Positions 2,941 to 32,388 of a DNA stretch of 64,000 bases are shown here, piece by piece. Location: positions 460-64,459 of the IMG/VR virus record IMGVR_UViG_3300029305_002795, one strand, 5' to 3'. The position numbers were made by a program, and so were the translations under genes. Each line of letters starts with the position of its first letter. Within the stretch, counting starts at the first letter, position 1. Origin of the DNA: a virus (lineage: Duplodnaviria > Caudoviricetes). Under the pieces are notes generated by a model. The model was not told where the DNA came from and searched no databases. It saw nothing but the letters and a program-made list of their open reading frames with translations.

Positions 2941-3193
2941 GACAATTAAATTTAAACTGCGTTGCAGCGTAGCCCGCTACGAGAGTAAGGGAGGTGTGGA
3001 ATGCCTGCTACATCTATAACAAGAAAATACAGGTAGGGTCAATTCAGTAATGGGTTGACGGTTATAGGGAATAACCTAATGAAGATGTTTACATCTTTGA
3101 GCTATCGCTGGCTCCCAAGTAAGATAGCAACGAGTTTGTGGAATAGCAGTTGCACAATAACACCCTGCTTGACAGCCCGGAAAGACGGGCGCT
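2941..3193 (+). ncRNA. Candidate highly structured ncRNA or leader RNA (family unidentified)
   Basis: GC-richer than surroundings, no credible + strand ORF; at least 8 stems including G-U pairs and a GUAA tetraloop; enclosing stem 3031-3037/3164-3170. Confidence 0.65.
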
Positions 3194-3208
3194 TTAGAAA
3201 GGAAAATT

Positions 3209-3421
3209 ATGACGCTTGACGAATTAGAAGAACAATACGCTAAATTAAAAGAACGATATACAATAAGAAACCAACAATACGAAAATGGTGAAATATCGCC
3301 AGAAGTTTGGTCCAACGAATTGGATAGCTATTTAATAGCTTTTCAACTTATAAATAGATTAATGGAAGAGGCAGTAGAACAATTAAAGGCAATTAAAAAT
3401 GGAACCAAAATTATTCATTAA
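3209..3421 (+). CDS. Hypothetical protein
   Basis: GAAAGGA RBS; 70 aa helical. Confidence 0.75.
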   Translation: MTLDELEEQYAKLKERYTIRNQQYENGEISPEVWSNELDSYLIAFQLINRLMEEAVEQLKAIKNGTKIIH

Positions 3422-3605
3422 TGATAAACTCGTTGGAGCTTGGAAACAGTTTGAATCACGTATACTGTTTACAAAAGAATGCAGAAATCCTATTAAGTTA
3501 CAAATCGTGTTAGATGACGGACAAAAATTGGATGTGTGGGCTGATAAGGAAGATTTAAAAAGATGTGGCGTTTATTCGCAGGAGAACAAACAAAATGAAA
3601 CATAA
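3399..3605 (+). CDS. Hypothetical protein
   Basis: Overlapping in-series ORF, 68 aa. Confidence 0.65.
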   Translation: MEPKLFINDKLVGAWKQFESRILFTKECRNPIKLQIVLDDGQKLDVWADKEDLKRCGVYSQENKQNET

Positions 3606-3903
3606 CGAAATTAAATCATATTTTAGAAAACGTCTACAAAAAGAATTAAACGATATTGGAATTAAATGTTTAAATGTGGACGAGACTAATAACTTTGGCA
3701 GAATTTATTTAGTCAAAGACGAAGCAATGGAAACAAAGTTTCTTGTAAGTGCCTTCTTTAATACAGACGGATATAGCATTAATGTTTATCCACCTAAGAA
3801 GGTAATTTTAACTTTCAAAGATAGTGTAAAAGAGGCGCAAGATAGTTATACTAATCTTACGCCAATGTACGACCTTATTACGTTTTTAAAAGAAAATTGT
3901 TAG
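3595..3903 (+). CDS. Hypothetical protein
   Basis: AGGAG RBS before ATG 3595. Confidence 0.7.
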   Translation: MKHNEIKSYFRKRLQKELNDIGIKCLNVDETNNFGRIYLVKDEAMETKFLVSAFFNTDGYSINVYPPKKVILTFKDSVKEAQDSYTNLTPMYDLITFLKENC

Positions 3904-4073
3904 TCGTTTAAAGTTTTAGAATGTAAAGCTAAATTAACTAAAGTTAGTAACTTGACACCCACGTCATAAAGGGTGTCAATTTCTTGTGCTGTATAATGTT
4001 CTGTATATGAAACGTGCTTCGACAGTATTTTAAGTATGTCTATTAATTCGTTGTTTAATTTTTGCGACTCCAT
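3900..4073 (-). CDS. 57-aa hypothetical protein (MESQKLNNELIDILK...SKTLND), below ORF-track cutoff
   Basis: AAAAGGAGG RBS on minus strand (4081-4090); stop overlaps the convergent stop at 3901-3903. Confidence 0.7.
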   Translation of the reverse strand: MESQKLNNELIDILKILSKHVSYTEHYTAQEIDTLYDVGVKLLTLVNLALHSKTLND

Positions 4074-4173
4074 CCATATCGCCTCCTTTTATGTTATATT
4101 CCCATTGTATAACATATTTAAACATTTTAAAAGTGTTTTTTGTAAAAAGTTGTAGAAAATTAAGTTGAAAATT

Positions 4174-4183
4174 GTGTTATAAT
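4174..4183 (+). promoter_or_regulatory. Extended -10 promoter (GTGTTATAAT) upstream of portal operon
   Basis: TG-N-TATAAT about 50 nt before portal start. Confidence 0.5.
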
Positions 4184-4231
4184 AATTTAGAAGATTTCTA
4201 ATTCACTATAATAATAAAATAGGAGAATTAT

Positions 4232-5803
4232 ATGTTTTTAGATTTTGTAAAAGCTGGTTTACTAAGTGAAGAAACTTTAGTTCAAAAGTTAGAAAAACTA
4301 GGTAAGCCCCAAGAAGATTTCCTTTATATTAACATTGACGATTTTAAGAAAAGTACAACTAGAAAAGAAATGCTAGTTGCACAAGATTATTATGTTGGTA
4401 AACACGACATATTTAATAAGAAACGTTATTACATTGATAGGGAAGGTACACAACGTGAGGACGAGAAACTCGCTAATAATAAACTGGTACACCCTTATTT
4501 CACAAAACTGGTTAATCAAAAGGTTAATTACGTTTTAAGTAAAGAGTTTACAATGCAGGTTGACGAGGACGACAAGAAAGCAGTTGATTTTCGTGAAGCT
4601 TGTAAAGATTATTTTGATAAGGCATTTTTTAGACGTTTAAAAACTATTGGTAAACACGCTATTATTAACGGTATTGCGTGGATGCAAATATATTATGACA
4701 GACTTGGAAAACTATCGTTTAAACGTATTCCAAGCGAAGAAGTTATACCATTTTGGGCAGATGCGGAACATACTATTTTAGAAGGTTTAATCCGCTTTTA
4801 TAACATTACGGAATATAAACAAAACGGTGAAAAAGAGGATATTACTAAAGTCGAATATTACACAATTGAAGGCGTTTGGTATTACGAAATTAGAGACGGA
4901 AAATTAGTTATTGACAAGGAAGTAGTTACCGTTGAAAACCCTGCTAAAGGACATTTCCAAACTAAAGTTAAAAATAACAAAGGCGAGGAAGTTATTGAAC
5001 AACGTACTTGGAATAAAATACCGTTTGTAGCGTTTAAATACAACGACGAAGAAATTTCATTACTAAACTATGTAAAAACCTTAATTGACGACTATGACAA
5101 CCGTACAAGCGATACAAGCGACTTAATACAGGACGTTCCTAACGCAATTAGAGTTATTAAGGGTTACGGTGGTGGAGACAAAGGGGAGTTTTCTCAAAAT
5201 TTAGCTACATACAGAAATATTTTCGTTGATGAAAATGGTGGTGTAGACCAATTAGTAAGTGAAGCCGATACAACTTGCACCGAAGCGCATTTAAGTCGTG
5301 TTAAAGACGATATTTATGAAGCCGGAAACGGTGTAAATATACAAAAAGAAGCTTTAAGTGCTACATCAGGTGTTGCGTTAAAATTACGTTACGCCGACTT
5401 GGATGCCGACTGTATGGCAATGGCTAACAGTTTCGCTGCTAGTATCGAGGAAATATGTTGGTTTATTCAAATGGATTTAACTGCTAACGTGACCGAAGAA
5501 GAGTTTGAAGAGACTAAATTCGATATTTTATTCAACGCCGACGGTATTATTAACGAAACCGACGTTATTCTTAACTGTAAAAACTCATTGGGTGTTATTA
5601 GTAATGAAACTATTGTTGCTAACCACCCTTGGACAACTGATTTAGATAAAGAACTTGAACGTATAGAAGCCCAAAGGGAAGAAGAGCAAGAACTTATGGA
5701 AGAAGCCATGAATGACGGTTTTGGTACAACTAGACCTTCCGCTTCTATTAATCAAAACAGTACAAGAAATAAAACCATTACAGGCGCTAAAAAAGGTGAA
5801 TAA
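4232..5803 (+). CDS. Portal protein, SPP1 gp6-like
   Basis: KLANNKLVHPY, KRIPSEEVIPFW, IPFVAFKYN, LIDDYD, SGVALKLRY, NHPW motifs; position after terL. Confidence 0.95.
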   Translation: MFLDFVKAGLLSEETLVQKLEKLGKPQEDFLYINIDDFKKSTTRKEMLVAQDYYVGKHDIFNKKRYYIDREGTQREDEKLANNKLVHPYFTKLVNQKVNYVLSKEFTMQVDEDDKKAVDFREACKDYFDKAFFRRLKTIGKHAIINGIAWMQIYYDRLGKLSFKRIPSEEVIPFWADAEHTILEGLIRFYNITEYKQNGEKEDITKVEYYTIEGVWYYEIRDGKLVIDKEVVTVENPAKGHFQTKVKNNKGEEVIEQRTWNKIPFVAFKYNDEEISLLNYVKTLIDDYDNRTSDTSDLIQDVPNAIRVIKGYGGGDKGEFSQNLATYRNIFVDENGGVDQLVSEADTTCTEAHLSRVKDDIYEAGNGVNIQKEALSATSGVALKLRYADLDADCMAMANSFAASIEEICWFIQMDLTANVTEEEFEETKFDILFNADGIINETDVILNCKNSLGVISNETIVANHPWTTDLDKELERIEAQREEEQELMEEAMNDGFGTTRPSASINQNSTRNKTITGAKKGE

Positions 5804-6858
5804 TGGCTGAGGTCAATAAACGTAATGCAGAATATTGGCAACGTCGATTTGAACAAATACTAATTTCTAATGAAGAATTAGCAGTCGAATATGAAAAAGA
5901 ACTCGCTAAAATTTACGAGCAGGTTAAACTTGACGTACAAAAGGAATTAGAAGCTTTTTACACTCGTTATAGCACCGAAACAGGCTTAGACTTAGCGGAA
6001 GTTAAAAGAAGGCTAGACCCTAAACAATTAAAACGATTTAAAACGCAACAAAAAATTTATTTAGCGAAAGTCGAGGAATTAATTGAACAGGGAGCTAATT
6101 TAGAAAACTACTCTAAAACCTTACAAAAACTAGCCGCAAGGGCTTACGTTACGAAGTTGCAGGAAATCCAAAATAACCTTAATTCCTTAATAACTATATT
6201 AGCAGGACAACAAGAAGTAAATATGGCTAAAGTTTTAAATGCGTCGTATTTACAAGGTTATTTTAAAACTACCTTTGAACTTCAAAAAGGTTTAGGCTTT
6301 GGAATGTCGTTTACACAACCAAGTAATGAAACAGTTTTAAAAGTCCTTAAAACCCCCTGGAATGAAGGCAATTACTCAACTCATATTTGGAAAAACAAAG
6401 CTAAATTAACAAATTGGCTAAATAAAGATTTACCAAGACACTTTGCAGCCGGTTCAGGTGTTAAAGAAATGAGTACAGAATTAGCGGAAAAATTAGGTAC
6501 AAGTTATAATAATGCGGTTAGGTTAGTAAGAACAGAAGTTAATTATATTAGTAACCAATCCACAATGGACAGTTATAGGAATACTGGTGTAGTTAAAAAA
6601 TATCAAATATTAGCGACTTTAGATTCTCGTACAAGTGATATTTGTCGAGATATGGACGGTGAAATATTTAAAGTAAGCGAAAGTCAAGTAGCTGTAAATA
6701 CACCTCCTTTTCATGTTCGTTGTCGTACAACTACTGTTCCATATTTCGAGGACGATGAAGATGATTTGGAAAGAATTGCAGTAGGCTCAAAGGGTCAAGT
6801 TTACTATGTTCCAGGAAATATCACTTACCCTGAATGGGAAAAGAAATATCGAAAATAA
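5803..6858 (+). CDS. Minor capsid/head morphogenesis protein (SPP1 gp7 / Mu gpF-like)
   Basis: RLVRTE, ATLDSRTSDIC, PPFHVRCRTTTVPY motifs. Confidence 0.92.
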   Translation: MAEVNKRNAEYWQRRFEQILISNEELAVEYEKELAKIYEQVKLDVQKELEAFYTRYSTETGLDLAEVKRRLDPKQLKRFKTQQKIYLAKVEELIEQGANLENYSKTLQKLAARAYVTKLQEIQNNLNSLITILAGQQEVNMAKVLNASYLQGYFKTTFELQKGLGFGMSFTQPSNETVLKVLKTPWNEGNYSTHIWKNKAKLTNWLNKDLPRHFAAGSGVKEMSTELAEKLGTSYNNAVRLVRTEVNYISNQSTMDSYRNTGVVKKYQILATLDSRTSDICRDMDGEIFKVSESQVAVNTPPFHVRCRTTTVPYFEDDEDDLERIAVGSKGQVYYVPGNITYPEWEKKYRK

Positions 6859-32338: not shown

Positions 32339-32368
32339 TTTACAAATTTAATAAAAATAATATAGGTT
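32339..32368 (+). promoter_or_regulatory. Phage-type promoter TTTACA-N18-TAGGTT
   Basis: Repeated motif variant. Confidence 0.65.
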
Positions 32369-32388
32369 ATGTAGAAGAGGTAAGTAAA

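Follow-up and report, generated by a model that had tools for sequence, protein, structure and literature searches.

A new structured RNA family of gut phage heads a moron-like cassette between terL and portal and ends in a widespread, apparently undescribed hairpin signal

Several described phage elements are relevant to the RNA reported here. ROOL and GOLLD are large, ornate phage-borne RNAs without known function, each an Rfam family. Morons are promoter-gene-terminator units inserted between phage late genes. The boxB hairpin of lambda has the form A-GCCCU-GAAAA/GAAGA-AGGGC-A, and lambda-type boxB/N pairs co-evolve. We compared these systems, together with the phi29 pRNA, with a ~250-base RNA (2941-3193, + strand) of the window, by which we mean the whole 64,000-nt stretch of DNA analysed, part of a 64.4-kb virus record of IMG/VR. 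Like ROOL and GOLLD, the RNA is phage-encoded and contains multiple helices, and the wider family of its terminal hairpin often adjoins tRNA genes. In contrast to them, it is much smaller (~200-250 nt) and has no Rfam match at either threshold used. Searched against Rfam 15 at the gathering threshold, the window gave no RNA matches, and the segment 2850-3260, searched at E up to 10, returned only two chance-level sRNA matches (18 and 16 bits). Homologous loci yielded tRNAs only. Thus, the covariance-model scan of Rfam that an earlier note on this DNA had put forward as a check returned no family for the RNA.

The RNA is located in a 1.33-kb interval separating terL (1560-2900, Terminase_3) from an SPP1-type portal gene (4232-5803), which agrees with the earlier placement between terminase and portal. 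In the closest TerL relatives in IMG/VR (76-80% identity; 76-79% in L003-L005) these genes are adjacent, with a gap of ~60 nt, and the segment 2901-4231 is therefore an insertion. Apart from a promoter and the RNA, it carries three small ORFs (70, 68 and 102 aa) and a terminator-like hairpin, as well as a 57-aa ORF in divergent orientation. The 70-aa ORF with its RBS GAAAGGA (3197-3421, + strand; ATG at 3209, 18 nt after the terminal hairpin of the RNA) is absent from some relatives, and the 68-aa ORF (3399-3605, + strand) is, by comparison with relatives, also an optional member of the cassette. The 102-aa ORF (3595-3903, + strand) is the constant member: its six full-length homologues (48-94% identity) and one 72-aa fragment, which come from metagenomes, are all found between terL and portal. 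No families were found for the cassette ORFs in Pfam, PHROG or PADLOC. A protein atlas gave neither a family nor a lead for the 102-aa ORF, for which structure matches rest on a model with pLDDT 0.55, and a 112-aa ORF had no relatives among viral contigs. No tRNA or tmRNA is present in the window.

Downstream of the ORFs, a terminator-like hairpin UUGACACCC / GGGUGUCAA followed by UUUCUUGU (3953-3990, + strand) is the probable end of the cassette transcript. It was missed by the terminator scan because its loop is 9 nt long, and it falls within the 57-aa ORF of the minus strand (3900-4073). The minus-strand region of this ORF (3900-4125) has a strong GGAGG RBS and a promoter-like site at 4131-4104, and relatives have small minus-strand ORFs at the same site. 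Similarly to morons, the cassette has its own promoter, a terminator-like hairpin, variable content, and an insertion site between adjacent genes; unlike morons, it is headed by a conserved structured RNA of 250 nt rather than by a short leader. Given a promoter that belongs to a class (see below), the terminator-like hairpin (recognized from sequence only) and the adjacency of terL and portal in L003-L005, the roughly 1.3-kb insertion is, by its make-up, a moron-like cassette.

The promoter of the cassette, TTTACA-N18-TATGTT (2902-2931, + strand), is followed by a conserved start region, ATGTAGAAG, that extends to position 2940. The earlier note had proposed that the RNA has its own promoter, and this view is strengthened by the finding of a promoter class: TTTAYA-N18-TAKGTT has eight exact matches in the window, all on the + strand (2902, 30221, 31115, 32339, 37228, 42055, 48273 and 56890), versus 0.34 expected. 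A 39-nt copy at 32339-32377, 85% identical and located before a gene, shares the following ATGTAGAAG. The promoter is kept in relatives both with and without the RNA. The class is phage-specific. Since its promoter belongs to this class, the RNA is very probably transcribed, with a predicted start at ~2938. The cassette promoter is the sole member of the class in the first 30 kb, packaging genes included, while the other seven are located between 30 and 57 kb, where they presumably precede replication and DNA-modification transcription units. Expression of the RNA would then be timed with replication genes and not with the packaging genes on either side of it.

The region 2941-3193 has a minimum free energy (MFE) of –81 kcal/mol (RNAfold, z = –3.88). 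Dinucleotide shuffling gave no equally good fold in 200 trials, which bears out the expectation that it folds better than shuffled controls. The minus strand folds less well (z = –2.80). G+C content reaches its maximum of 0.43 at the RNA versus ~0.30-0.36 in adjoining segments. All the stems listed in the earlier note are present, and the MFE fold reproduces most of them. No ORF of note was found over the RNA stretch; moreover, indels between homologues are not multiples of three, and hence the stretch is non-coding. Homologues were collected from contigs with the 102-aa ORF and from one metagenome pattern scan. Besides the window copy, six were found (L083, L084, L085, L090, L335 and L336), all of which come from relatives of the window phage and form one lineage. 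No match to the RNA was obtained in GenBank phages by DNA search, and neither nhmmer nor blastn found it in 80 TerL-anchored loci. One further locus (L319) gave a weak nhmmer match and was rejected as a homologue, the alignment showing the terminal hairpin to be the main driver of the match.

We projected the MFE structure of the window RNA on a sequence-only MAFFT alignment of the seven sequences. Pairing was observed in 77% of cells, compared to 34-42% when the 3′ partners were slid, and 27 pairs were changed on both sides, compared to 7-13 in the slid controls. The observed covariation score was reached by 0 of 500 shuffles, a statistic that is inflated by shared ancestry, as the comparative set, here and below, consists of just seven related sequences of one lineage. 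Of the 50 pairs that RNAalifold predicted from five sequences, 12 have undergone compensatory change, and the prediction recovered seven helices: the 2992-3015 hairpin, the closing helix, the GUAA and AGGGA hairpins, 3081-3098, 3101-3128, and the terminal hairpin, but not the variable arm. Homologues also fold better than their shuffles (z from –1.5 to –4.1). Four pairs of the GUAA hairpin of L336 differ from those of the window, and nine perfect pairs still form. Several G-U pairs are invariant, identifying the + strand as the RNA strand. Selection at the RNA level, which the earlier note had deduced from G-U pairs and a GNRA loop, is thus backed by covariation as well as by conserved G-U pairs of the + strand. 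We conclude that the ~250-base RNA is, on comparative sequence grounds, a new structured RNA family of gut phage.

From the 5′ end, the RNA starts with two small hairpins, CTGC-GTT-GCAG and CGTAG-CCCG-CTACG (2957-2981, + strand). They are kept in L083, L090 and L335 with changes in loops only, and are absent from L084, L085 and L336. No covariation was found in them among homologues, CGTAG/CTACG being invariant where present. The hairpin AGGTGTGG/CTACATCT (in RNA letters AGGUGUGG / CUACAUCU; 2992-3015) has an 8-nt loop and is paired in 95% of cells across the seven sequences, with one U-A pair changed to A-U, one G-U changed to G-C, and one G-U invariant. It is followed by a single strand, AUAACAAGAAAAUA (3016-3029), which is A-rich, boxA-like, and the most conserved unpaired stretch of the RNA: its invariant columns are shared by all seven homologues, and L090, L335 and L336 read UCUUUAACAA there, which we take to be the core of E. 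coli rrn boxA. The multi-helix domain (3030-3171) is closed by pairing of 3030-3037 with 3164-3171, which is the true extent of the enclosing helix and takes in the UG of the UGACA that precedes the terminal hairpin. Within the domain, covariation supports the GUAA-loop hairpin (3038-3059), the AGGGA-loop hairpin (3060-3076), the AAGATG/CATCTT hairpin (3081-3098), and the GCTATC/GATAGC hairpin with loop GGCUCCCA (3101-3128). The variable arm (3129-3163) is without comparative support, and conservation of its TTGTG/CACAA stem (3136-3157) was not found among homologues. Hence, the stem list of the earlier note holds for seven helices, whereas TTGTG/CACAA and the 5′ CGTAG/CTACG stem are without comparative support. 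In L084, an extra 200-nt 5′ domain (3172-3372) contains GGUGCAAAUCC, a string typical of cobalamin riboswitches; Rfam gave no match to it.

The earlier note had also suggested that the CUCCC loop could pair with the AGGGA loop or with GGGAG at 2989-2993. The second partner is unlikely because GGGAG is missing in three homologues that keep CUCCC. The AGGGA and CUCCC loops are complementary. Five sequences keep both of them unchanged, which leaves no covariation to score, and in the L090/L335 variant the two have been replaced together. This pattern is compatible with a contact between the two loops, which we treat as a candidate only.

Comparison of relatives revealed that the RNA is an optional, exchangeable module. 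It is followed by the 70-aa ORF in the window, L084 and L090, by the 68-aa ORF in a contig of sequencing run X8, and by the 102-aa ORF in L085, and the distance from the terminal hairpin to the AUG is 17-19 nt whichever ORF comes next. In L087-L089 the promoter leads straight into the 102-aa ORF and the RNA is absent. L083 and L085 have, in addition, a second folded segment unrelated to the first; it too terminates in this hairpin, whose stem has changed in a compensatory manner. DNA contigs of sequencing runs contain additional mosaic variants of the cassette. In one of them (contig 11, run X8) the promoter runs directly into the 68-aa ORF, and a direct repeat, AGAAGGACAATTAAA / AGTAGAACAATTAAA (2936-2950 and 3373-3387), coincides with the joint of the variant, which suggests that recombination between repeats of this kind removes or exchanges members of the cassette. 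At the terL-proximal end of the insertion site of L089, which is devoid of the RNA, there is an HNH_3 homing-endonuclease gene (218-838). Non-coding RNAs can thus be optional and swappable members of cassettes, just like accessory genes.

The exchangeability of the RNA bears on the loose analogy with the phi29 pRNA that had been drawn earlier, considered here as a packaging RNA that would assemble on the portal via kissing loops. The two have in common that they are phage RNAs of at most a few hundred bases with hairpin loops able to pair, and the position between terminase and portal together with the complementary loops is all that points to a packaging role. On the other hand, the RNA is dispensable in relatives: it is missing from L003-L005 and L087-L089, whose TerL and portal are 76-98% identical to those of the window phage. 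In L089, the TerL and portal ends are 94% and 98% identical to those of the window and flank a cassette that has the promoter and the 102-aa ORF. Packaging-gene ends that are near-identical and yet come without the RNA exclude a pRNA-like role, and we reject it. The phage type and the packaging enzyme also differ from those of phi29, the window phage having a classical large terminase and an SPP1-type portal; the promoter is of the replication-gene class, and no match to the Rfam pRNA model was found.

The last element of the RNA is a 22-nt terminal module (3170-3191, + strand), in which UGACA is followed by GCCCG-GAAAGA-CGGGC (stem 3175-3190). Its score with covariance model R1 is 35 bits, and no other significant copy was found in the window. 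In general form, the motif consists of UGAC-R and a 5-bp stem closed by G-C with the loop GAAAGA; position 3191 is G in the window and A in most copies. We searched with a 21-nt pattern, TGACARCCYGGAAAGACRGGY, which has 17 fixed bases and four two-fold degenerate ones and would be expected by chance about once in IMG/VR (our estimate). It matches at least 118 viral contigs of IMG/VR and at least 120 bacterial and archaeal genome contigs from many phyla. Matches in cultured phages include those of Stenotrophomonas, Bacteroides, Ralstonia, Bacillus, Erwinia, Rhodobacter and others, and lie mostly in unannotated intergenic DNA. This wide occurrence had gone unnoticed in the earlier note. There are mostly one or two sites per genome or record (five were searched whole).

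The flanks of the hairpin are not conserved (81 distinct contexts), save for C at –1 (53%) and A at +1 (78%). The pattern used to retrieve most sites prescribes much of the stem, so that only two measures of pairing are unbiased: the count of degenerate pairs (81 contexts) and a test with the 5′ half (46 sites). In the former, the two degenerate pairs, read on the hairpin strand, are exclusively Watson-Crick or G-U, with 0 C-A combinations versus ~19 expected. In the latter, sites were chosen by the 5′ half alone, and 35 of 46 pair at four of four positions, compared to 2 of 46 in a shifted control. Further copies found in the hairpin loci have many other stems, always with G-GAAAGA-C and the 5′ UGAC-R. 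In 30-odd hairpin loci compared with Rfam, nothing beyond tRNAs and one unrelated sRNA was reported, whether at the gathering or at a relaxed threshold. The hairpin is not described in the searchable literature, where its sequence strings occur only in unrelated random synthetic sequence; nor was a description found in the literature on phage hairpins, tRNA, ribozymes and antitermination. It is a very widespread and apparently undescribed phage RNA signal, absent both from Rfam and from the searchable literature.

We next consider what adjoins the hairpin. A tRNA on the same strand starts 1-8 nt (mostly 4-6) after it in 14 of 171 contexts, versus none on the opposite strand. Long ORFs flanking the hairpin are mostly co-oriented (209 versus 95). 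The hairpin is followed by a variety of genes (KTSC, DUF6321, SSB and unknowns), and none of the protein families encoded next to it was found repeatedly across contexts, the clusters merely mirroring related phages. Compared with shuffles, the excess of structure is modest and similar on the two sides (z = –0.7 upstream, –1.0 downstream), and given this lack of asymmetry the family data do not show the hairpin to be specifically a 3′ end. An intrinsic terminator was considered and is unlikely: the window copy is followed by GCUUUAG, without a U-tract, and the + strand terminator scan flags none there. Across the family, a TTTT run is present within 9 nt in 31 of 169 members (18%).

These data are relevant to the possibility, raised in the earlier note, that the RNA is a regulatory leader for the ORFs at 3209-3903. 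According to this explanation, the folded RNA would sense a ligand, protein or temperature and control the next ORF at the level of translation or stability, the hairpin at –18 serving as an operator or as a 5′ stabilizer beside the RBS. The RNA does sit between the promoter and the first ORF, the hairpin-AUG spacing stays at 17-19 nt regardless of the ORF, and in many other phages the hairpin is found a few tens of nucleotides upstream of start codons. However, distances from the hairpin to the next ORF start, determined with a crude ORF caller, do not differ from those of an opposite-strand control, and the hairpin also precedes tRNAs, which are untranslated. No terminator/antiterminator or RBS-sequestering alternative fold was found in the RNA, and the RBS (3197-3203) is unpaired in both the MFE and centroid folds. 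The downstream gene is interchangeable (three ORFs in relatives) and heterogeneous across the hairpin family. With three different following ORFs and no expression platform, the leader hypothesis is weakened, and we consider it rather unlikely.

Among known elements, the closest analogy to the hairpin is the nut-type boxB of lambda. Both are read on one strand and have a GC-rich 5-bp stem, GCCC-N/N-GGGC, with A on both sides and a purine, GAA-rich loop; in some temperate phages the hairpin also occupies nutL, nutR or late-leader positions. In BUCT708 it lies 146 nt downstream of a cro/cI-type gene; in an E. coli prophage (NZ_CM132251.1) it follows a cI-like gene and is part of a 1-kb ORF-free leader; in phiEt88 it comes after a Q-like antiterminator gene and before tRNA-Phe. 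These are positions of the nut/qut type. Together with the boxA-like sequence of the most conserved single strand of the window RNA, these similarities might point to antitermination of the nut or put kind, in which the boxA-like strand and the boxB-like hairpin, joined by the closing helix, modify the polymerase for read-through. The differences argue against it. The hairpin has a hexaloop, GAAAGA, in place of the GNRA-like pentaloop of boxB, a G-C closing pair and an obligatory 5′ UGAC-R, and its 6-nt loop, in contrast to the co-evolving boxB/N pairs, stays constant between phages of Bacillota, Bacteroidota and Pseudomonadota. There is no family-wide boxA: in 160-odd contexts, boxA-like matches are not enriched near the hairpin relative to downstream, reverse-strand and shuffled controls, and in the window the boxA-like strand lies ~140 nt upstream of the hairpin in sequence, compared to the few nt that separate boxA from boxB in a nut site. 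No arginine-rich, N-like ORF was found among the cassette ORFs. The put RNA, as described in its paper, is a different, two-stem RNA from which GAAAGA is absent, and many copies of the hairpin abut tRNAs, often at 4-6 nt, or stand in tandem arrays. We therefore find a nut- or put-like role unlikely. In the E. coli prophage (locus L331), the ORF-free leader with the hairpin (3548-4579) is GC-rich and is located between the cI-like repressor gene and early-left genes; the sequence DAKTRKSAEQQQLAAN, found further downstream in a 45-aa frame, is similar to the arginine-rich motif of lambda N, possibly by chance.

Could the RNA be catalytic? Either the multi-helix domain or the hairpin together with the flanking UGAC might cut the transcript into modules, and the RNA does have a multi-helix junction with a GNRA loop and a possible loop-loop contact. 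Hammerhead ribozymes are, in addition, found beside the hairpin at two other loci. Yet they occur at only 2 of ~240 hairpin sites, and the window RNA itself has no match to a ribozyme family at E up to 10 and lacks the hammerhead core CUGANGA...GAAA. A conserved unit of 22 nt with unconserved flanks is also too small for any known self-cleaver, and the theta-ribozyme paper describes an element different from the hairpin. We regard self-cleavage as highly improbable. At the first of the two hammerhead loci (L169, positions 1-1470 of a 5.6-kb contig), five hairpins are spaced ~180-280 nt apart over 1.5 kb of ORF-free DNA that includes one tRNA, and the third hairpin copy is immediately followed by the core of a type I hammerhead (CUGAUGAG...CGAAAC). 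L289 has a second hammerhead, at a distance of 165 nt from its hairpin. Neither of the two was reported by Rfam.

The explanation that we favor, tentatively, is that of a modular non-coding RNA whose terminal hairpin acts as a punctuation or recognition signal for a conserved, probably host, factor, and whose folded domain is stable and acts in trans. The host is the most likely source of the factor because the loop is unchanged across phyla. An independent moron-like unit between terL and portal, with non-coding 5′ ~250 nt, would be transcribed from a phage-specific promoter of the replication/DNA-modification class. The transcript would fold into the 5′ hairpin, the A-rich single strand, the multi-helix domain with its GUAA, AGGGA and CUCCC loops, and the terminal hairpin. 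The latter would mark the boundary between the folded RNA and whatever follows, be it a tRNA, another RNA or an RBS. Bound by the conserved factor, it might set or stabilize one of two ends, that of the folded RNA on its 3′ side or, alternatively, the 5′ edge of the downstream message. The upstream folded domain could then persist as a stable non-coding RNA and serve in trans as a decoy or a binding platform.

A more far-reaching proposal, possible though less likely than not, is that the UGAC-R/GAAAGA hairpin is a universal transcript punctuation read by a conserved component of the host RNA-processing, ribosomal or transcription machinery, and that the window RNA belongs to a large, so far unrecognized class of non-coding RNA cassettes, each comprising a folded domain and the hairpin, exchanged among phages as genes are and acting in trans in the infected cell. 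Almost letter for letter, the 22-nt hairpin recurs in phages of Bacillota, Bacteroidota, Actinomycetota, Pseudomonadota and other groups. If the reading favored above is right, a signal so constant across hosts would have to be read by something universal. The identity of the reader would expose a general step of phage gene expression, such as processing, stabilization or polymerase modification. The hairpin would provide a simple marker for loci of phage non-coding RNAs, and gut phages would have gained a new structured RNA family with an architecture supported by covariation.

Several RNAs found near the hairpin in other phages deserve mention. In the Bacteroides phage BS-TP2 (L332, 3027-3134) a tRNA-like RNA of 108 nt starts ~4 nt after the hairpin. 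Rfam tRNA matches of 108-124 nt, compared to a model length of 71 nt, are thus seen after the hairpin in BS-TP2 and also form arrays in L293 and L320. ARAGORN does not call most of them, and they may be tRNA-like RNAs with an insertion of ~40 nt. Finally, the second folded module of L083 (1530-1727) and a segment upstream of the hairpin in the unrelated locus L329 (hairpin at ~6506-6535, minus strand) have common blocks, UGGUGCGUUAA, UACAAAU and GAGA-CGCUUGUA, which may represent another recurrent phage RNA domain.
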